35,640 nucleotides of DNA, taken from the IMG/VR virus record IMGVR_UViG_2684623059_000001; one strand, 5' to 3'. The DNA comes from a virus (lineage: Duplodnaviria > Heunggongvirae > Uroviricota > Caudoviricetes). A program made the position numbers and the translations under genes. The first letter of the stretch is position 1, and each line of letters begins with the position of its first letter. Shown here in pieces: positions 1 to 11,076 of this stretch. Under the pieces are notes generated by a model. It was not told where the DNA came from and did no database searches. It saw only the letters and a list, made by a program, of their open reading frames with translations.

Positions 1-1074
1 TCATTTGTTGATTTCAATTTTGTCCCATTCTCTCCCTCGGCTGTCCCTATACCGCGCCGCCATTGAATCTGATTTATGCCCGAGAAGACGTTGAGCAAAC
101 TTATCGCCAATCTGATTCCGGTATAGCCTCGCCGACAGGCTACGCAGTTCATGGAATGTTGGCGGGTCTCCATCAAATGAGAGTCCAGATGCATTTCTCG
201 CCTTTGTAAAATACTTAGATACTGTTTTCGGGGAAAGCGGTTCGTGATGCGTTGATGCAATTATTGTTTCACTGCCGCTGGCCTCCCTGCATTTCTGTAG
301 TGTATCAGCCAATGAAATATTGAGCGCGTCAATCGTTAGCGTCAGCGGAATGGCGAGCTTAGCCCCTGTTTTACCCTGTTCAATGTGAAGATGGTTGTCG
401 TTTATGTCTGACCATTTCATTTTGCACAAATCGCCGACTCTCTGACCTGTAACGACGGCCAAATCCATCGCAAGCCTCAGCCAGATTGGGAGAGGTTCGG
501 CTGCATGGTGAATTGCGACATACTCATTAGCTGTCAGCCTTGAGCGCCTTACTTCTGACTTTGCTGTGCGGGTTGCTGTTACCGGATTCGTAGCCACATG
601 CCCCTCGGCTATTGCCTCACGAAAAACGTCAACAAGGGTTGACCTGATTAATTTTGCGGAAGCCGCTTTACCTTCTGCTACGTAGGTGTTTAGCATTGCT
701 GCCACCTCTTTCGTTGATATGTCTGCGAGCGGTTTGTCCGGCAATTTTCTTCGGATTGCCCTGATTTTGCTGGCGTAGTCGAGTAGAGTTTTCGGCCTGA
801 TACCCCTCTCGCTGAGGATTGTTTCATATCGGTCAAGCCACGCATGAAGAGTGATTGCGTCAGCGCCTTTAATTCTGTCTATCAGTGACTCACGCCTGTT
901 CCCGGATAGCAACTCAATATTGGCCTGTATAGCTTCAGTGATTGCTATACGTCTGTCTCGGCCTAATCCGAACTCTTTACCCGTCCTTGGGTCCCTGTAG
1001 CAGTAATATCCATTGTTTCTTATATAAAGATTAGGGGGTAAATCCCGGCGCTCATGACTTCGCCTTCTTCCCAT
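1..1074 (-). CDS. int: Phage integrase, tyrosine recombinase, lambda Int type
   Basis: 357-aa translation starts MGRRRSHERRDLPPNLYIRNNGYYCYRDPRTGKEFGLGRDRR and ends ...RGREWDKIEINK, collinear with lambda Int as I remember it; overlaps xis as in lambda. Confidence 0.95.
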   Translation of the reverse strand: MGRRRSHERRDLPPNLYIRNNGYYCYRDPRTGKEFGLGRDRRIAITEAIQANIELLSGNRRESLIDRIKGADAITLHAWLDRYETILSERGIRPKTLLDYASKIRAIRRKLPDKPLADISTKEVAAMLNTYVAEGKAASAKLIRSTLVDVFREAIAEGHVATNPVTATRTAKSEVRRSRLTANEYVAIHHAAEPLPIWLRLAMDLAVVTGQRVGDLCKMKWSDINDNHLHIEQGKTGAKLAIPLTLTIDALNISLADTLQKCREASGSETIIASTHHEPLSPKTVSKYFTKARNASGLSFDGDPPTFHELRSLSARLYRNQIGDKFAQRLLGHKSDSMAARYRDSRGREWDKIEINK

Positions 1075-1270
1075 TTCTGATCCTCTTCAAAAGGCTACCT
1101 GTTACTGGTCGATTTAAGTCAACCTTTACCGCTGATTCGTGGAACAGATACTCTCTTCCATCCTTAACCGGAGGAGGGAATATCCTGCACTCGCGTACCC
1201 ATCGACGAACTGTTTCAAGGCTTCTTGGGCGTCGCTGGCGTGCGTTCCACTCCTGAAGTGTCAAGTACAT
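1052..1270 (-). CDS. xis: Excisionase
   Basis: 72-aa translation MYLTLQEWNARQRRPRSLETVRRWVRECRIFPPPVKDGREYLFHES... matches lambda Xis almost residue for residue (from memory); 3' end overlaps int start. Confidence 0.93.
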   Translation of the reverse strand: MYLTLQEWNARQRRPRSLETVRRWVRECRIFPPPVKDGREYLFHESAVKVDLNRPVTGSLLKRIRNGKKAKS

Positions 1271-1375
1271 CGCAAAGTCTCCGCAATTACACGCAAGAAA
1301 AGCCGCATTGATGCGGCAATGGTAGGTCTGGATATCTTGAGAAATGAACAGGCCTCATCGAGTGTGAGGCTGTGG

Positions 1376-1720
1376 TTAGTCCTTGCGTAACTCACTAATT
1401 CTTCTGTAAGTCTCTGGTGCTTTGTTTCCGTGTATCTTCATTTCAGACTTCAACAGAGCAACGAGGGAATCCCATTCGTTGAGGATGCCTTTGAATGCCG
1501 GAACGCGCTTTGCAACCTTGTCGAATGAATCTCTGATTTCTGGAATCTGCTCAACAAGTGCAACGCATCGCCGGAAGTCTGCTGCGTCATGTGGAGCGCC
1601 GAAGTGATGACCATAGATATTCTTTTTCAGTCCACATGCGATTGAGGCAAGAGTTGCGCTACTAATGCCAACATCGCCAGTCGATTGCCATTTCAAAACC
1701 TTCATAGCCAAATCTGACAT
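1376..1720 (-). CDS. Hypothetical phage early-region protein (114 aa), function unknown
   Basis: Intact ORF co-oriented with xis and int immediately upstream of xis; I do not recognise a family. Confidence 0.55.
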   Translation of the reverse strand: MSDLAMKVLKWQSTGDVGISSATLASIACGLKKNIYGHHFGAPHDAADFRRCVALVEQIPEIRDSFDKVAKRVPAFKGILNEWDSLVALLKSEMKIHGNKAPETYRRISELRKD

Positions 1721-1820
1721 TTCTTGTCTCCATAAAACAAAACCCGCCGTAGCGAGTTCAGATAAAAGAAATCCCCGCGAGTGCGAGGATTGTTATTCAC
1801 CTTTAACGGCAAGTTGCAGG

Positions 1821-2057
1821 TTAGCCACGGTTTACCTCCTGCGGCGGTTCCGGTAGCGGCATCCAGTGAGTTGCTTGCTCAATACCATTACCCGGCTTAA
1901 TCGTTGCATCTCCGCGCCGAAAGGTGCTTCCGGTATAGCGTGCGGAGCATATTAGCGGTTCAACCAGAGAGCTATCGAAATTCACCGAAATAAGCACGTT
2001 CTGGCCCTTTTCAGGCATTCGCTCACTACAGCTTATCCAACCATCCGGAGTTACCGG
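1821..2057 (-). pseudogene. 3' fragment of an unidentified early-left-operon gene, truncated by the IS911 junction
   Basis: The minus-strand frame of ORF 1821..2018 stays open upstream (PVTPDGWISCSER before the listed Met) right up to the IS911 end at 2058, so the listed Met is probably internal. Confidence 0.45.
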
Positions 2058-2129
2058 TGAAGTGGCACACTGAATTTGGCCACCTGAACAGAGGTGATAT
2101 GCTCACCTCAGAACAACACAGGTGCTCCA

Positions 2130-3298
<1,169 letters not shown>

Positions 3299-3306
3299 CC
3301 ACTTCA

Positions 3307-3396
3307 ATGCTGGAAGTTCACGTGTGTGAGCACTGCTGCGCAGAGCTGATGAGCGATTCGAATAGCTCGATGCACGAGGAAGAAGATGATGGCTAA
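3307..3396 (+). pseudogene. ninF: ninF 3' remnant (last ~29 codons) abutting the IS911 right end
   Basis: Frame reads (M)[28 protein letters not shown] then stop, matching the lambda NinF C-terminus as I remember it; the NinF N-terminus is not present left of the IS. Confidence 0.7.
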
Positions 3397-4009
3397 ACCA
3401 GCGCGAAGACGATGTAAAAACGATGAATGTCGGGAATGGTTTCACCCTGCATTCGCTAATCAGTGGTGGTGCTCTCCAGAGTGTGGAACCAAGATAGCAC
3501 TCGAACGACGAAGCAAAGAACGCGAAAAAGCGGAAAAGGCAGAAAAGGCAGCAGAGAAGAAACGACGACGAGAGGAGCAGAAACAGAAAGATAAACTTAA
3601 GATTCAAAAACTCGCCTTAAAGCCCCGCAGTTACTGGATTAAACAAGCCCAACAAGCCGTAAACGCCTTCATCAGAGAAAGAGACCGCGACTTACCATGT
3701 ATCTCATGCGGAACGCTCACGTCTGCTCAGTGGGATGCCGGACATTACCGGACAACTGCTGCGGCACCTCAACTCCGATTTGATGAACGCAATATTCACA
3801 AGCAATGCGTGGTGTGCAACCAGCACAAAAGCGGAAATCTCGTTCCGTATCGAGTCGAACTGATTAACCGCATCGGGCAGGAAGCAGTAGACGAAATCGA
3901 ATCAAACCATAGCCGCCATCGCTGGACTGTCGAAGAGTGCAAGGCGATCAAGGCAGAGTACCAACAGAAACTCAAAGACCTGCGAAATAGCAGAAGTGAG
4001 GCCGCATGA
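3386..4009 (+). CDS. ninG: NinG (Rap) recombination-associated protein
   Basis: Translation [36 protein letters not shown]...CISCGT...[11 protein letters not shown] is lambda NinG-like; the start may be the second ATG at 3389. Confidence 0.9.
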
Positions 4010-4212: not shown

Positions 4213-4855
4213 TGGCAGCAAATACCGAAATATTTGGGTAGCTGGCGACCTGCACGGATGCTACACGAACCTGATGAACAAACTGGATACGATTGGATTC
4301 GATAACAAAAAAGACCTGCTTATCTCGGTGGGCGATTTGGTTGATCGCGGTACAGAGAACGTTGAATGTCTGGAATTAATCACATTCCCCTGGTTCAGAG
4401 TTGTACGTGGAAACCATGAGCAAATGATGATTGATGGCTTATCAGAGCGTGGAAACGTCAATCACTGGCTGCTTAATGGCGGTGGCTGGTTCTTTAATCT
4501 CGATTACGACAAAGAAATTCTGGCTAAAGCTCTTGCCCATAAAGCAGAAGAACTTCCGTTAATCATCGAACTGGTGAGCAAAGGTAAAAAATATGTCATC
4601 TGCCACGCCGATTATCCTTGTGACGAATACGAATTTGGAAAGCCAGTTGATCATCAGCAGGTAATCTGGAACCGCGAACGAATCAGCAACTCACAAGACG
4701 GGATCGTGAAAGAAATTAAAGGCGCGGACACGTTCATCTTTGGTCATACGCCAGCAGTGAAACCACTCAAGTTTGCCAACCAGATGTATATCGATACTGG
4801 CGCAGTGTTCTGCGGAAACCTCACATTGATTCAGGTACAGGGAGAAGGCGCATGA
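4190..4855 (+). CDS. ninI: Lambda-type serine/threonine protein phosphatase (NinI)
   Basis: Metallophosphatase motifs GDLHG, GDLVDRG and GNHE in the translation; ATG at 4190 gives the 221-aa lambda length, the listed ORF start at 4115 overlaps ninH. Confidence 0.88.
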
Positions 4856-5475
4856 GACTCGAAAGCGTAGCTAAATTTCATTCGCCAAAAAGCCCGATGA
4901 TGAGCGACTCACCACGGGCTACGGCTTCTGACTCTCTTTCCGGTACTGATGTGATGGCTGCTATGGGGATGGCGCAATCACAAGCCGGATTCGGAATGGC
5001 TGCATTCTGCGGTAAGCACGAACTCAGCCAGAAAGACAAACAAAAGGCCATCAACTATCTGATGCAATTTGCACACAAGGTATCGGGGAAATACCGTGGT
5101 GTGGCAAAGCTTGAAGGAAATACTAAGGCAAAGGTGCTGCAAGTGCTCGCAACATTCGCTTATGCGGATTATTGCCGTAGTGCCGCGACGCCGGGCGCAA
5201 GATGCAGAGATTGCCACGGTACAGGCCGTGCGGTTGATATAGCCAAAACAGAGCAGTGGGGGAGAGTTGTCGAGAAAGAGTGCGGAAGATGCAAAGGCAT
5301 CGGCTATTCAAGGATGCCAGCAAGCGCCGCATATCGCGCTGTGACGATGCTAATCCCAAACCTTACCCAACCCACCTGGTCACGCACTGTTAAGCCGCTG
5401 TATGACGCTCTGGTGGTGCAATGCCACAAGGAAGAGTCAATTGCAGACAACATTTTGAATACGGTCACACGTTAG
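4852..5475 (+). CDS. Q: Late-gene antiterminator Q (lambda type)
   Basis: 207-aa translation [33 protein letters not shown]...[12 protein letters not shown]...CGRCKGIGY matches lambda Q with its zinc-binding cysteines; start overlaps ninI stop. Confidence 0.93.
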
Positions 5476-5517
5476 CAGCATGATTGCCACGGATGGCAAC
5501 GTATTAATGGCATAATA

Positions 5518-5546
5518 TTGACTTTTTGAATAACTTTGGGTAAATT
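5518..5546 (+). promoter_or_regulatory. Late promoter pR' (with overlapping qut region) for Q-dependent transcription
   Basis: ttgact (5518..5523), 17-bp spacer, taaatt (5541..5546), in the string ttgactttttgaataactttgggtaaatttgac, which closely resembles the lambda pR' region as I recall it; lies directly after Q. Confidence 0.6.
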
Positions 5547-5754
5547 TGACGCCAACAATGGGTGTTTTTTGCCTGCCATTGATGAATCTCAATAACCTGC
5601 CACCGAGTAGTTTTTATGCCCTGAATTGTATTTGTGTAGTAAACATGCTGACTGCAATGTAATAGAGTTTTTTTAGCCTGTAACCTCTTGACGGCATTGA
5701 ATTGCTTTTGTTATGAGTTGTAAGCCAATGTTATCATCTTGTATTGGGGTGGTT

Positions 5755-6471
5755 ATGAAGGATGGTGCGCTGCTCAGGAGTTCTTCACTTTTTATTGCCT
5801 ATATGGGATGCCTTGGATGGGGGAGTGCTTATTTCTATGGATGGGGTACTTCTTTTTACTACGGCTTCCCATGGTGGATTGTAGGTGCAGGTGTTGATGA
5901 TGTTGCCAGAAGTTTATTTTTTGCAGTTATCGTCATTGCTATATTTCTTATCGGTTGGGGTATTGGTGTTGTATTCTTTTTCGCAGTGAAAAGAAAACAT
6001 TCTATGCAAGAGCTAAATGTATTTCGCCTTTATTTTGCTGTGGAATTATTGTTTGTGCCGGCAATTATTGAGTTTTCTATATTGAGACAGAAGATTCAGG
6101 TACCTCTTTTGCTACTGTCAGCAGCGATTGCGCTGGCGGTTACAATTTCGATAAGATCTTATGGGCGATTTTTATCGGTATCATGCTTCTATGATAAGCC
6201 ATTTATAAAAAAACATTTTTTTGAGATTGTGATGATTGCTTTTGTGGCATATTTCTGGCTTTTTTCATTTCTGACAGGATATTACAAACCACAGTTTAAG
6301 AAAGAATATGAAATGATTAATTATAATGATGGTTGGTATTATGTTCTTGCTCGTTATGATAATTGTCTGGTTTTGTCTACTTCTTTCAATGCAGGTAGTA
6401 AAAGGTTTGTCATTTATCAATCAGCACAAGATAAGAATCTTCAGGTTGATATTGTAAGGACCAGAATTTAA
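5755..6471 (+). CDS. Hypothetical polytopic inner-membrane protein (about 238 aa), AT-rich insert downstream of Q
   Basis: Long open frame in visibly AT-rich DNA; about five hydrophobic segments (for example FFAVIVIAIFLIGWGIGVVFFFAV) then a ~60-aa hydrophilic C-terminal domain. ATG at 5755 is preceded by ggggtgg; an alternative ATG at 5713 is listed. Confidence 0.6.
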   Translation: MKDGALLRSSSLFIAYMGCLGWGSAYFYGWGTSFYYGFPWWIVGAGVDDVARSLFFAVIVIAIFLIGWGIGVVFFFAVKRKHSMQELNVFRLYFAVELLFVPAIIEFSILRQKIQVPLLLLSAAIALAVTISIRSYGRFLSVSCFYDKPFIKKHFFEIVMIAFVAYFWLFSFLTGYYKPQFKKEYEMINYNDGWYYVLARYDNCLVLSTSFNAGSKRFVIYQSAQDKNLQVDIVRTRI

Positions 6472-6930
6472 TTGGCTGCATAAATAATATTTTAAGTTGC
6501 AAGTTGGCTATTCGTAGGAATAGAACCTTAGACATGCAGAATGCGTTTTCTGAACATTGTTTTGTAAACCGTGTCTGCTTGCTGTTGTGATCCTGCTTTT
6601 AGTGATGGTGATAATGGATTTCACCAGCAGAATTATGTCGGTGCTGGCGGATGGCGTTCTGGTCTGCAGCATTATGGTATTGCTGTGGCCTATGATGAAA
6701 AAATAGACTGAATAATGCTTGATTTTTTTGTTTGCTGTTTATTAAAAACATTTCTGCATGGTGAATTCCCCTGTATGGGGGGGCGACTGGTGAATGTCGA
6801 ATACTTCGATTAATTGTCGATTGGCGGCTGACGCGGGTTCGGTTGCACCAGGCTGAACTCACCGGGAAGCTCCCGGTACCATGCGTATATCACAATTGTT
6901 ATTCCAGTTATCATTTTCCTTGTGAGTTTT

Positions 6931-6957
6931 GGCTGCGCATGGCGCGGCCTTTTTTTA
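6931..6957 (+). terminator. Candidate rho-independent terminator upstream of nanS-p
   Basis: ggctgcgc / atgg / gcgcggcc stem-loop (one G-U pair) followed by ttttttt. Confidence 0.4.
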
Positions 6958-7049
6958 CGGCCTGCTATTGGCAGATGTTCATCCTGTGATTTTCTTCTGT
7001 TCCTGCTCCGGCCTTTCCCTACTTTATTCCTGTGCATGAGAGAAATTTG

Positions 7050-8903
7050 ATGTCGATTAAACGTTATGATTTGGTCAGGGCTGCCTCGCCGTCAGATCTG
7101 GCGGAAAAACTGACACAAAAGCTGAAAGAGGGCTGGCAGCCATACGGCGGACCGGTTGCCATTACGCCGTACACACTGATGCAGGCGGTGGCTATTGAAG
7201 GAGATCCACAGGTCGGCCCTTCATCTGAGCCGGACTGGTTCTACGTGGTTGTGCTTGCCGGACAGTCCAACGGCATGGCCTACGGTGAAGGGCTTCCGTT
7301 GCCGGATTCTTACGATGCTCCGGATCCGCGCATTAAACAGCTGGCGCGCCGCAGCACGGTAACTCCGGGTGGAGAGAGTTGTACGTATAACGACATCATC
7401 CCGGCTGACCACTGTCTGCATGATGTGCAGGATATGAGTACGCTGAATCATCCGAGGGCTGACCTAAGCAAAGGTCAGTATGGCTGTGTGGGGCAGGGAC
7501 TTCATATTGCCAAAAAACTGCTCCCGTATATCCCGAATAATGCGGGGATCCTGCTGGTACCATGCTGTCGTGGTGGTTCGGCATTTACCCTGGGCGCGGA
7601 GGGGACATTCAGTGCGGACACGGGGGCCAGCCAGGATTCGGCGCGCTGGGGTGTGGGTAAACCGTTATATCAGGACCTGATTGTGCGCACCAAAGCTGCA
7701 TTACAGAAGAACCAGAAAAATGTGTTGCTGGCGGTGTGCTGGATGCAGGGAGAGTTTGACATGAGCGCCGCCACCTACGCACAGCAACCTGCGCTGTTTA
7801 CAGCCATGCTGAAGCAGTTTCGTGCTGACCTCACTGTGTTTAACGCGCAGTGTCATGGTGGCAGTGCTGTAAATGTGCCGTGGATTTGTGGTGACACGAC
7901 GTATTACTGGAAAAACACCTACGGCACGCAGTACAACACCATTTACGGGGCGTACAAAAACAGGGAGAGTGAGGGCGTTTATTTTGTGCCGTTCATGACA
8001 GACGGTAACGGCGTCAATACCGCCACTAATGCGCCGGCAGAAGATCCAGATATTCCGGCATCAGGATATTACGGTGCGGCATCGAGAACGAATGGAAACC
8101 AGGTATCATCAAACCGCCCGACACATTTTAGTTCATGGGCGCGCAGGAGCATTATTTCGGATCGCCTGGCAACCGCTATTCTGAACGCAGCCGGGCGCAC
8201 CTCAGCCTTCATCAGTGGTAAGGCACCGGAAATCAACCCCTCGCCCGGCGGCGATACGCCATCGGGGCCGTCTGATAGCGAAACATCCGTCCGCACAGTC
8301 TCCCTGCTGCCGGCAGACGGAGAGGCTGCTACGCAGGGCTGGACTATTAAAGATGGCGGAATTCAGCTGGCAGATGGTGTATTTAAGATCACCAAGCAGA
8401 GCAATAAAACCTGGTCCCTGGCGCATCCGGTGGATGACGCAATTACCCTGCTGACACAGGGCGGCAGGCTGACTTGTAAGTTCCGCCTGTCTGGAGCTCT
8501 GACTAATAATCAGTTCGGGCTGGGGATTTATCTGTATACGGACGCTCCCGTTCCTGATGGTGTGGCGATGACGGGTACCGGTAATCCGTTCCTGATGTCG
8601 TACTTCACTCAGACCACTGACGGTAGACTGAATCTGATGCATCACAGGAAAGCAGGAAACACGAAGCTGGGGGAATTTGGGGGCTACAGTAACGACTGGC
8701 AGACGCTGGAGCTGGTGTTCACCGCCGGCAGTGCCACGGTTACTCCGAAACTGAATGGAGTGGCTGGCCCGGCATTCCAGGTTATAAAAGACAGTCTGAC
8801 TCTGGGACTGAATGCGCTGACGCTGACGGATGTTACAAAAAATGCAGCGTATGGCGTTGAGATAGAAAGTCTGATGCTGGAGATAAATGCACCGGCATCA
8901 TAA
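7050..8903 (+). CDS. nanS-p: Prophage sialate O-acetylesterase (NanS-p type, N-terminal DUF1737 plus SGNH/SASA esterase domain)
   Basis: N-terminus MSIKRYDLVRA... and a GQSN motif near the start of the esterase domain; position after Q and before the lysis genes matches 933W-type phages. ATG at 7050 preferred over the GTG at 7032. Confidence 0.78.
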   Translation: MSIKRYDLVRAASPSDLAEKLTQKLKEGWQPYGGPVAITPYTLMQAVAIEGDPQVGPSSEPDWFYVVVLAGQSNGMAYGEGLPLPDSYDAPDPRIKQLARRSTVTPGGESCTYNDIIPADHCLHDVQDMSTLNHPRADLSKGQYGCVGQGLHIAKKLLPYIPNNAGILLVPCCRGGSAFTLGAEGTFSADTGASQDSARWGVGKPLYQDLIVRTKAALQKNQKNVLLAVCWMQGEFDMSAATYAQQPALFTAMLKQFRADLTVFNAQCHGGSAVNVPWICGDTTYYWKNTYGTQYNTIYGAYKNRESEGVYFVPFMTDGNGVNTATNAPAEDPDIPASGYYGAASRTNGNQVSSNRPTHFSSWARRSIISDRLATAILNAAGRTSAFISGKAPEINPSPGGDTPSGPSDSETSVRTVSLLPADGEAATQGWTIKDGGIQLADGVFKITKQSNKTWSLAHPVDDAITLLTQGGRLTCKFRLSGALTNNQFGLGIYLYTDAPVPDGVAMTGTGNPFLMSYFTQTTDGRLNLMHHRKAGNTKLGEFGGYSNDWQTLELVFTAGSATVTPKLNGVAGPAFQVIKDSLTLGLNALTLTDVTKNAAYGVEIESLMLEINAPAS

Positions 8904-9060
8904 TAAAAAAACGCCAGCGTAGTAGAAGAGAAGATTACGCTGGCGTAGGGATATACCCCGTGGAGAAATGATATGTAACACATATCGGGGATATTTCTAT
9001 ATAAACATTATAATTATTGTCAATCATAATGGTCAGGTATTATGACGTTTATGCATCAGA

Positions 9061-9089
9061 GCCATCAGTAATTAACTGGTGGCTTTTTT
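9061..9089 (+). terminator. Candidate rho-independent terminator between nanS-p and the holin gene
   Basis: gccatcag / taattaa / ctggtggc hairpin (one G-U pair) followed by tttttt. Confidence 0.4.
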
Positions 9090-9124
9090 ATTGTTGTCAG
9101 CTTCCGGATAACGGGAGACGGGGT

Positions 9125-9340
9125 ATGTACCAGATGGAAAAAATCACAACAGGTGTGTCATACACCACGTCAGCGGTGGGGACGGGATACTGGTTACTGC
9201 AGCTGCTGGACAAAGTCTCTCCATCCCAGTGGGTGGCGATAGGTGTGCTAGGGAGCTTGGTTTTTGGCCTGCTGACGTACCTGACAAACCTTTATTTCAA
9301 GATAAAAGAAGACAAGCGTAAGGCTGCGAGAGGTGAATAA
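9125..9340 (+). CDS. S: Holin, phage 21 S-type pinholin with dual-start motif
   Basis: 71-aa translation [45 protein letters not shown]...KRKAARGE resembles the S21 pinholin; two Met codons three residues apart suggest holin/antiholin starts. The listed ORF start at 9017 is an extension. Confidence 0.9.
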
Positions 9341-9837
9341 TGCCTCCATCATTACGAAAAGCTGTTGCAGCTGCTATTGGTGGCGGGGCTATTGCTATAG
9401 CATCTGTGTTAATTACTGGCCCAAGTGGTAACGATGGTCTGGAAGGTGTCAGCTACATACCATACAAAGATATTGTTGGTGTATGGACTGTATGTCACGG
9501 ACACACCGGAAAAGACATCATACTAGGTAAAACGTATACCGAAGTAGAATGCAAAGCCCTCCTGAATAAAGACCTTGCCACGGTCGCCAGACAAATTAAC
9601 CCGTACATCGAAGTCGATATACCGGAAACAACGCGCGGCGCTCTTTATTCGTTCGTTTACAACGTGGGCGCAGGCAATTTCAGAACATCGACTTTTCTTC
9701 GCAAAATAAACCAGGGTGATATCAAAGGCGCATGTGATCAGCTACGGCGTTGGACATACGCTGGCGGTAAGCAATGGAAAGGGCTGATGACTCGCCGCGA
9801 GATTGAGCGTGAAGTCTGTTTGTGGGGACAACAATGA
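9340..9837 (+). CDS. R: SAR endolysin (signal-anchor-release lysozyme, phage 21 R type)
   Basis: N-terminal hydrophobic Gly/Ala-rich SAR segment [20 protein letters not shown] followed by a T4-lysozyme-like domain; start overlaps the holin stop. Confidence 0.9.
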
Positions 9838-10298
9838 GCAGGGTAACCGCGATTATCTCCGCTCTGGTTATCTGCATCATCGTCTGCCTGTCATGGGCGG
9901 TTAACCATTACCGTGATAACGCCATGACCTACAAAGCCCAGCGCGACAAAAATGCCAGAGAACTGAAGCTGGCGAACGCGGCAATTACTGACATGCAGAT
10001 GCGTCAGCGTGATGTTGCTGCGCTCGATGCAAAATACACGAAGGAGTTAGCTGATGCGAAAGCTGAAAATGATGTTCTGCGTAATGATGTTGCCGTTGGT
10101 CGTCGTCGGTTGCACATCAAAGCAGTCTGTCAGTCAGTGCGTGAAGCCACCACCGCCTCCGGCGTGGATAATGCAGCCTCCCCCCGACTGGCAGACACCG
10201 CTGAACGGGATTATTTCATCCTCAGAGAACGGCTGATGACAATGCAGAAGCAACTGGAAGGAGCACAGGAATATATCCGTACCCAGTGTATACCGTGA
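9834..10298 (+). CDS. Rz: Inner-membrane spanin Rz
   Basis: Translation from [29 protein letters not shown]... is lambda Rz-like; listed ORF start at 9822. Confidence 0.9.
10054..10236 (+). CDS. Rz1: Outer-membrane lipoprotein spanin Rz1, embedded in the +1 frame of Rz
   Basis: 60 aa with lipobox LVVVGC and proline-rich tract [16 protein letters not shown]; located entirely inside Rz. Confidence 0.85.
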
Positions 10299-10761
10299 TG
10301 TTTTGTTATGAAGGTGTTACTGGTAACGTTAAGGTAATTTAACAAAAAGTCAGTTCCGGACTTTATAGTGTGCTCAGATCATGGCCAAAAACGATTTCTG
10401 TGATAAATATTTTGAATATTATTTACAGATAAATGAAGTGGGCGCATGGATGGAAATTTACAATAGAGTATGAAGTATATGTCCGTATTGTATGGGCAGA
10501 GAAGGCAAAAACACGGTAATTCCTTGTGTTGCCATGATACCTGATTGGCAGAATAGTTGTTTGGTTTTGAGTATATAGTCAGCGTTTTTTGTTCAGTAAT
10601 AGCTCTCTCAAAAAATAATAAAATAAGGTGATTATTTGGGTTTATTATTTAGTTTTTTTTGTGTGTTGCTTTGTTGTTTCTCTGTGATTTATTTTTTATT
10701 GTTATTTCATTAAAGGAAGGTAAATTCAGGATAGCAGTCTGTAGATAATCGGAGGTCACTT

Positions 10762-11076
10762 ATGCTACATGATCACCTGGCAGAATGTCTGGAGAAAAAA
10801 GGACTGTACCGGAGAGCAGCTGAACGATGGGCAAAAGTGATGGTACAGCTAAGTGATGACCAGAAAAGAAAAGTGGCGGCACAGAAACGAGCAGAGTGTT
10901 TGCGTAAGGCGCGCCGGACTCCGGTTTCACCGGTGAACCTGACAGAAATAAAACAAGCGGTCAACAGACTACATTCTGAGTTGGGAATGGGATTTGAAGA
11001 GCGGCGGGTATTCCGACGATATAAAGGGACAGGAGAACAGAATACGTCCGGAAACGCGCGGTCAAAAAAATGCTAA
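10762..11076 (+). CDS. Putative PerC-family (Pch-like) transcriptional regulator
   Basis: 104-aa basic protein MLHDHLAECLEKKGLYRRAAERWAKVMVQ...; the LE-KGL-RRAA-RW motif is what I recall for PerC/Pch regulators of the LEE. ggagg ribosome-binding site 8 nt upstream; preceded by ~460 bp of AT-rich non-coding DNA. Confidence 0.5.
   Translation: MLHDHLAECLEKKGLYRRAAERWAKVMVQLSDDQKRKVAAQKRAECLRKARRTPVSPVNLTEIKQAVNRLHSELGMGFEERRVFRRYKGTGEQNTSGNARSKKC

Follow-up and report, generated by a model that had tools for sequence, protein, structure and literature searches.

A TfpB/STM1630-family membrane protein gene in the lambdoid slot where Shiga-toxin phages have stx

The window analysed here is a stretch of 35,640 nucleotides from a virus of the Caudoviricetes (IMG/VR record IMGVR_UViG_2684623059_000001). 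Our subject is an AT-rich block that lies in it between the antiterminator gene Q and a nanS-p type esterase gene, together with the main gene of that block, which encodes a membrane protein of 238 residues. We assign this protein with high confidence to the TfpB (PF27470)/STM1630 family, which is catalogued without an assigned function. We are equally confident in reading the block as a mobile cassette of cargo that occupies the lambdoid slot bounded by the late promoter pR' and the STnc100, nanS-p and lysis genes, where Shiga-toxin phages have stx. The reading that we favour as a whole, at a probability of roughly 0.45, is that of a TfpB-family cargo gene whose product would bind or scaffold an envelope component for the host and whose expression would be two-fold; the mechanistic part of it is held with low confidence.

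Results

Family membership was established from precomputed labels and full-length similarity. The Pfam PF27470 label 'TfpB' is carried by the 100%-identical cluster representative of the protein and by all 108 matches, RefSeq names near-identical proteins 'STM1630 family protein', and the protein aligns over its full length with Moraxella bovis TfpB (27% identity, E 5e-23). We found that it also belongs to phrog_1521 (E 2e-154), which PHROGs lists under 'unknown function', and that it is 100% identical to the phage 434 protein CPT_434_68, annotated as a 'putative membrane protein' (OL657226.1). It has the architecture of the TfpB family, that is about 240 residues, an N-terminal aromatic/glycine motif, several helices and a C-terminal beta domain. 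A preliminary description of this DNA, made from the letters without database searches, had called the protein unrecognised. This was mistaken, since the protein is identical in phage 434, is present in the EDL933 prophage CP-933M and has families in both Pfam and NCBI. The same description did not recognise it as a lambda or 933W product, and both phages are indeed without the gene; no well-characterised family of known function turned up that would change its outlook: the family has a name and no function attached. Scans of the protein against Pfam, NCBIfam and PADLOC gave no functional match, the Pfam and NCBIfam copies scanned being ones that contain no PF27470 or STM1630 model. The 56 relatives gave only stray matches in Pfam and PADLOC (in PADLOC two and one members, E about 0.01), and a PDB sequence-profile search with the protein gave no match.

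The Salmonella Typhimurium protein STM1630 is like the window protein in length, architecture and low GC content, and the two are 46% identical. Unlike the window gene, STM1630 is chromosomal, adjoins sseJ, lies outside any prophage and has no DUF3927 partner. Moraxella TfpB keeps the AY.YGWG...GYPWW...ARSL motif and the C-terminal YY.L beta domain, whereas the M. bovis protein has 261 residues and its gene lies in an invertible pilin segment beside the piv recombinase gene. No function is known for Moraxella TfpB. In all relatives the start codon is the equivalent of position 5755. We rejected a 252-residue reading from the ATG at 5713, a codon that falls within a conserved non-coding motif, in favour of the family-wide start at 5755, and we rejected a lipoprotein signal for want of conservation of the cysteine at position 20.

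An AlphaFold2 model built from 56 diverse relatives had a pLDDT (predicted local distance difference test) of 79.4 and a pTM (predicted template modelling score) of 0.73, while an earlier run with 27 close relatives had a pLDDT of 58.8. Hydropathy and AlphaFold2 place five membrane helices at residues 3-36, 47-79, 88-111, 116-137 and 155-181, and AlphaFold2 adds a C-terminal five-strand beta domain at residues 187-232. This agrees with the preliminary picture of a protein of about 238 residues with about five transmembrane segments and a small C-terminal domain. The loops at 80-87 and 138-154 are positively charged. Since the positive-inside rule places both of these loops in the cytoplasm, the protein is predicted to be an inner-membrane protein with its N terminus inside and its C terminus outside, and the conserved aromatic loop and the beta domain would be periplasmic.

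We found that Y26, Y28, G29, W30, G31, G37, P39, W40, W41, A51, R52, S53, L54 and G175 are invariant or nearly so, and that the beta domain has a conserved core of Y195, Y196, L198 and F218. The conserved motif reads A-Y-x-Y-G-W-G...Y-Y-G-F-P-W-W, then A-R-S-L. The conserved residues cluster at the predicted periplasmic side. No histidine, aspartate and serine set of the kind found in enzymes is conserved across the family alignments, and Foldseek searches of the model against PDB and BFVD gave no match at E <= 0.001.

The ratio of non-synonymous to synonymous substitution rates (dN/dS) was 0.05 for the window copy against E. albertii copies (dS 0.24) and 0.07 for S. enterica against its arizonae/diarizonae orthologues, with an overall range of 0.05-0.08. 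The copies in the window, phage 434 and CP-933M have synonymous differences only, with zero non-synonymous changes. Family genes have a GC content of 36-40% in every host. By sequence comparison, then, the membrane gene is a working gene under purifying selection.

A family member is present in 1198 of the 5426 complete E. coli genomes (about 22%), at a median of two places per genome. Matches spanning at least 80% of the gene occur in 767 genomes, and 679 records of complete E. coli genomes hold a copy with at least 99% DNA identity, mostly from O157, O145, O103 and O111 E. coli that produce Shiga toxin (STEC), EDL933 included. Only three of 50,697 phage records have the gene, one from phage 434 and two from phage 2B8; lambda and 933W do not. 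When 1.84 billion cluster representatives were searched with a profile, only 76 matched, and the named family members belong to Enterobacteriaceae, Pasteurellaceae, Neisseriaceae and Moraxella, all of them animal-associated.

The M. bovis and M. lacunata homologues are located within the invertible pilin segment, with a pilin gene segment on either side and piv as a neighbour, and it is to this position that the Pfam family owes the name TfpB. The tfpB open reading frame (ORF) of M. lacunata NCTC10359 stops at 195 residues (locus L018, 5001-5588) compared with 261 in M. bovis (locus L016, 491-1276), and M. lacunata has a second tfpB copy on another contig (L017). The Salmonella orthologue is STM1630, and the subspecies enterica, arizonae and diarizonae of S. 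enterica share the order sseJ-STM1630-frmR (loci L004, L024 and L027). Across these subspecies STM1630 is 89-91% identical, more than SseJ (78-86%) and less than frmR and the ADH gene (98-100%). The copies of Aggregatibacter, Neisseria animaloris and Mannheimia lie amid housekeeping genes, and no neighbours shared among them were found. In a prophage of E. coli 05-3629 a diverged paralogue comes after a Q of a third type and before phage tRNA genes. This prophage contains four STnc100 copies (locus L014, 9301-9513, 11273-11468, 11532-11731 and 11793-11982), three of them in tandem just before the esterase gene. In UTI89 there is a frameshifted TfpB-family pseudogene (locus L012, 6003-6634) near a phage-type tRNA-Arg, IS4 remnants and the iroBC salmochelin genes of the iro island. 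Enterotoxin plasmids of enterotoxigenic E. coli (ETEC; 23 in PLSDB, for example pUMNK88_Ent) carry an intact paralogue 866 bp from eltA in divergent orientation. This plasmid paralogue lies within an eltAB/IS481/astA/stb toxin island (locus L013, 5995-6708; loci L041 and L042, 3501-4214).

Among the family members STM1630 has been reported to cluster with genes co-regulated with Salmonella pathogenicity island 2 (PMC2639726) and to have its own promoter and be induced in macrophages (PMC2639726; bioRxiv 10.1101/689075; 10.1101/450098). Its expression during macrophage infection is lower in D23580 than in 4/74 (10.1101/450098), and its own -10 box is mutated in ST313 strains (10.1101/689075).

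The AT-rich block spans about 5400-6750. Its GC content is 0.31-0.42 versus 0.48-0.57 in the flanks, recovering by about 6900, and that of the membrane gene is 0.36. We place the mosaic junctions at about 5611 on the left and about 6770 on the right. The left flank consists of NinG, NinH, a serine/threonine phosphatase and then Q, and the right flank of a nanS-p type esterase, an S21-type holin, lysozyme, Rz and Rz1. In the window the order is therefore Q, pR', membrane gene, DUF3927, STnc100, nanS-p and S. In 933W it is Q, pR', terminators, three tRNAs, stx2AB, STnc100, the antisense AsxR, nanS-p and S, with STnc100 lying 75 nt past stx2B; the order of the stx2AB/STnc100/AsxR region is also backed by PMC12370729. 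Like the window cassette, stx2AB of 933W is found 3' of Q/pR' and terminators and directly 5' of STnc100 and nanS-p. Unlike it, stx2AB encodes a secreted AB5 toxin, has tRNA genes ahead of it and shows no sequence relationship to the cassette. In CP-933M the order is Q, membrane gene, DUF3927, STnc100, the antisense AgvB and nanS-p, and the window shares this order. A small-RNA family scan found no match to AgvB or AsxR in the window, including the stretch from STnc100 to nanS-p.

The preliminary description had placed an AT-rich block behind Q and a lambda-like pR' and before nanS-p and the lysis genes, which the GC profile, Pfam matches and promoter scan confirm. It had equated the slot with the stx slot, and direct gene-order comparison with 933W supports this. 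Its proposal of a moron position with independently acquired cargo is supported by the mosaic borders, the several Q contexts and the host-wide low GC content. It was wrong, however, in describing a single-gene insert, as the block also contains the DUF3927 ORF and the STnc100 small RNA (Table 1).

The block is best read as a self-contained moron whose main gene has its own promoter-like motif. The gene is present in some lambdoids (434, 2B8 and many prophages) and absent from their close relatives lambda and 933W, and its base composition is unlike that of the flanks. On the 5' side there is the conserved promoter-like motif and on the 3' side a strong terminator (6931-6957), which is shared with the small RNA. 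The low GC content kept across hosts, the repeated placement behind different Q types and the absence from lambda and 933W fit independent acquisition. The segment from Q to the holin (4800-9400) is, as far as its alignments go, a mosaic without exact counterpart in the complete E. coli collection, since no whole-segment match exceeded 95%. The best match to these genomes was 94.6% over 93%, in pieces.

Phage 434 is like the window in having the identical protein and the order membrane gene, DUF3927/TciB, small-RNA/terminator region, SASA esterase and class II holin, and its cassette lies in the classical '434B non-homology' region. It differs in that it has a Q82-like antiterminator and an intact terminator, whereas the window has the lambda-type Q/pR' and a decayed terminator. 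The small-RNA region of 434 also scores below the STnc100 gathering score, while that of the window scores above it.

The DUF3927 ORF scored 51.6 bits against a Pfam gathering cut-off of 25, and RefSeq genomes as well as phage 434 have it annotated at the equivalent place. The PHROGs label for phrog_1470, 'TciB-like inhibition of cell division or resistance to colicin', is a name only, taken from the tci genes of P1-type phage-plasmids. DUF3927 accompanies the membrane gene only in the cassette of STEC and 434. We rejected it as an obligate partner of the membrane gene because neither the Salmonella locus nor the 05-3629 prophage has it.

The STnc100 element has at its end the only strong intrinsic terminator in the region (stem at 6931-6949, -19 kcal/mol, with a run of U after it). 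It is also found after stx2B in 933W and after the cassette in CP-933M. STnc100 small RNAs are known from prophages, EDL933 having 11 copies that are expressed without induction (PMC5331693), and STnc100 is related to PasD (bioRxiv 10.64898/2026.05.13.724894). A megablast search of 6700-7100 against the phage collection gave no match.

The spacing of the promoter-like motif upstream of the membrane gene resembles that of a -35 element plus a TG-extended -10 element, the -10-like sequence being TATGAG. Its bases are invariant upstream of paralogues with about 57% protein identity, which come from prophages and one ETEC plasmid. DNA similarity to these paralogues begins about 70 nt 5' of the ATG, and their coding sequences have diverged to saturation. 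Since the motif is kept upstream of paralogues whose coding sequences are so diverged, it fits a putative promoter that travels with the gene. A second promoter candidate from the scan, at 5708-5737, was rejected because its conservation is weaker than that of the motif at 5687-5717. The upstream regions of the E. coli and Salmonella family genes gave no alignment.

The 3' end of Q has about 93% DNA identity to lambda Q, and window positions 5400-5563 are 92.7% identical to lambda J02459 44434-44596. The homology stops at about 5563, and therefore lambda's own tR' is absent from the window. A hairpin at 5548-5566 was rejected as tR' because it overlaps the pR' transcript start expected from the promoter position. 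A degenerate tR'-type terminator remnant lies at the left mosaic junction. At this site phage 434 has a terminator of -13.3 kcal/mol (z -4.3) followed by U8, compared with -2.2 kcal/mol (z -0.25) in the window, and the site is likewise decayed in CP-933M. Homology between the window and 434 starts inside it. The coordinates of the site are 5597-5615 (+) in the window and 3338-3363 in locus L003. The decayed terminator may permit Q-independent read-through from pR'. Because lambda tR' is absent and the 434-type terminator is decayed, we propose that pR' transcripts may run through the cassette to the STnc100 terminator without Q, and that Q may be required only past that terminator.

Discussion

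Judging from sequence comparisons and the structural model, it is the bacterial envelope, and not phage growth, that the membrane protein most likely serves. Our main argument for a host-envelope role over a phage-directed one is the existence of solitary, syntenic and selected chromosomal copies. The protein would be non-enzymatic and would bind or scaffold a conserved component of the envelope on the outer side of the inner membrane, a reading that we base on the lack of a conserved catalytic-type residue set. It would act alone, which is supported by the lack of conserved neighbours in three genera and by the fact that DUF3927 is not always present. The benefit would go to the bacterium in its animal hosts, and the phage would be a mere carrier. 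Expression would be two-fold, first from the gene's own promoter-like motif, with possible pR' read-through to the STnc100 terminator, and then with a strong rise after induction through Q-modified polymerase.

Several points weigh against this reading. The topology is predicted from the positive-inside rule and a medium-confidence model, and the label SH3-like for the beta domain comes from Foldseek matches that are non-significant. The -10-like element is without the usual final T, and a consensus promoter scan missed the motif. A Rho-dependent stop between pR' and the membrane gene is possible. The recurrent place directly behind Q could point to a role in lytic growth instead. Deletion of STM1630 left replication in macrophages unchanged (10.1101/689075). 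A deletion mutant was hypermotile in one screen (PMC4219756), but in a follow-up with a rebuilt mutant this was not among the highlighted phenotypes (PMC4534456). We found no experiment that assigns a function to any TfpB/STM1630 member.

Superinfection exclusion or abortive infection is the foremost alternative, although we consider it unlikely. The preliminary description had put phage exclusion first among its suggestions and had also named a late-expressed host-interaction factor; direct support was found for neither. The protein would block entry of phage DNA at the inner membrane, or kill infected cells, and so protect the lysogen. P22 SieA, T4 Imm and HK97 gp15 are known entry blockers with an inner-membrane layout, encoded by phages or prophages and acting alone. 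The window gene is prophage cargo at the classic moron site with a patchy, horizontally spread distribution, and its product is a single autonomous inner-membrane protein whose conserved surface, in the model, faces the periplasm in a layout like that of such blockers. However, PHROGs, PADLOC and Pfam gave no homology between SieA, Imm or gp15 and the window protein, and none of these three is known as a conserved chromosomal gene across bacterial families. PADLOC had no match for the protein and no consistent one among its 56 relatives, and the PHROGs category assigns it no defence function, being 'unknown function'. In Pasteurellaceae and Neisseria the gene is surrounded by housekeeping genes and not by a defence island. 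The Salmonella copy sits at a fixed locus across subspecies under strong purifying selection, which is unusual for defence genes with their fast turnover, and it is regulated with virulence genes (PMC2639726).

It is improbable, in our judgement, that the protein is an accessory of the lytic cycle. Being encoded first on the late transcript that depends on Q, it would ready the envelope for lysis or release, for example through holin timing. Its position directly 3' of pR'/Q in three unrelated Q contexts, just before the lysis cassette, favours such a role, as does phage 434, where an intact terminator lies ahead of the gene and pR'-driven expression would therefore be Q-dependent. Yet lambda and 933W manage without the gene, so few phage records contain it (3 of 50,697), and orthologues persist under selection in chromosomes and plasmids that have no phage genes nearby. 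The protein matches no Pfam holin or antiholin family and has five helices plus an extra domain, and the window has an S21-type holin of its own.

There is a slim chance that the gene encodes an orphan immunity protein against a membrane-targeting bacteriocin or a contact-dependent toxin of mucosal competitors. Pore-forming colicins have immunity proteins that are small, polytopic and located in the inner membrane, and a solitary, horizontally spread polytopic membrane gene that is limited to animal-associated Proteobacteria and conserves no catalytic-type residues would be compatible with this. Against it, no toxin gene adjoins any copy that we examined, and neither the protein nor its 56 relatives gave a Pfam match to colicin immunity families. 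The wording 'resistance to colicin' belongs, in name only, to the neighbouring DUF3927 gene.

The chance is slighter still that the family modulates type IV pilus assembly and that phage copies would alter host piliation. The Moraxella homologue lies between two pilin segments and adjoins piv, and many of the host taxa are piliated and naturally competent. TfpY, TfpZ and FimB (PMC11841053) have about 235-245 residues, N-terminal helices and a periplasmic C-terminal domain, a broadly similar layout, and their genes lie beside pilin genes like Moraxella tfpB. The comparison, which is by description only, also shows differences, as TfpY-like proteins have three helices where the window protein has five, and a larger mixed alpha/beta domain where the window protein has an all-beta one; PMC11841053 makes no mention of TfpB or Moraxella. 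No pilin gene is present in the window or near any enterobacterial, Pasteurellaceae or Neisseria copy that we examined, and pilin adjacency is confined to the Moraxella homologues. That the gene is decaying passenger DNA without function in E. coli is hardly credible. The pseudogene of UTI89, the truncated M. lacunata ORF and the defective state of many host prophages speak for it, but it is contradicted by the low dN/dS between the window and E. albertii copies, by the absence of non-synonymous changes among the window, 434 and CP-933M and by the 767 genomes with a match over at least 80% of the gene.

To return to the reading that we favour, the cassette is one more uncharacterised lambdoid cargo gene in kind, and for this reason the finding is useful but unsurprising. 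A family member is found in about a fifth of complete E. coli genomes (22%), often twice in STEC, and the gene occupies the stx slot, with relatives beside the genes for LT toxin and beside sseJ. As the identical gene is carried by phage 434, a classical and easily handled phage is at hand for testing exclusion, lysis and lysogen fitness. A bolder and rather doubtful extension is that the TfpB/STM1630 family might be a single-gene envelope factor that has so far escaped study, is spread between mucosal pathogens by mobile elements and repeatedly comes to lie next to genes for toxins or effectors (the stx slot, eltAB, sseJ). It might then represent a new inner-membrane block to phage entry or a host-adaptation factor at the periplasmic face, perhaps made constitutively on a Q-independent pR' leader that ends at the STnc100 terminator.

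Other features of the window

The features of the region from Q to the lysis genes are collected in Table 1.

Table 1. Coordinates of the membrane gene, its cassette and the neighbouring genes and signals
Feature	Position	Strand	Basis or remark
TfpB/STM1630-family inner-membrane protein (predicted), 238 aa	5755..6471	+	phrog_1521, PF27470 label, 434 identity, AlphaFold2 model
Antiterminator Q, lambda type, left neighbour	4852..5475	+	Pfam PF03589 Antiterm, E 2e-56
Lambda-type late promoter pR', TTGACT-17-TAAATT	5518..5546	+	Promoter scan
Degenerate tR'-type terminator remnant at left mosaic junction (about 5611)	5597..5615	+	
Promoter-like motif: CTTGAC(G) 5687-5693, then TTTGTTATG 5707-5715	5687..5717	+	Conserved upstream of paralogues
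DUF3927/'TciB-like' two-helix membrane ORF, 49 aa, TTG start	6557..6706	+	Pfam PF13064, E 9e-14; phrog_1470, E 5e-18
STnc100-family small RNA, divergent	6727..6960	+	Rfam RF02076, 95.8 bits vs gathering score 47, E 1e-20; model 1-206 fully covered
nanS-p type sialate O-acetylesterase, right neighbour	7032..8903	+	Pfam DUF1737 + SASA + DUF6645
Class II (S21-type) holin, start of lysis cassette	9125..9340	+	Pfam PF04971, E 5e-32
Lysozyme	9340-9837		After S21-type holin
Rz	9822-10298		After lysozyme
Rz1	10054-10236		After S21-type holin and lysozyme

Just 3' of nanS-p, on the minus strand at 8903-8984, there is an Esr41-like match that scores below threshold (47.5 bits compared with a gathering score of 102). 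After Rz/Rz1 the window has a second AT-rich stretch at about 10350-10800, with a GC content of about 0.33. From about 10350 to 10760 it contains no ORF of at least 50 residues, and ORFs start at 10760.

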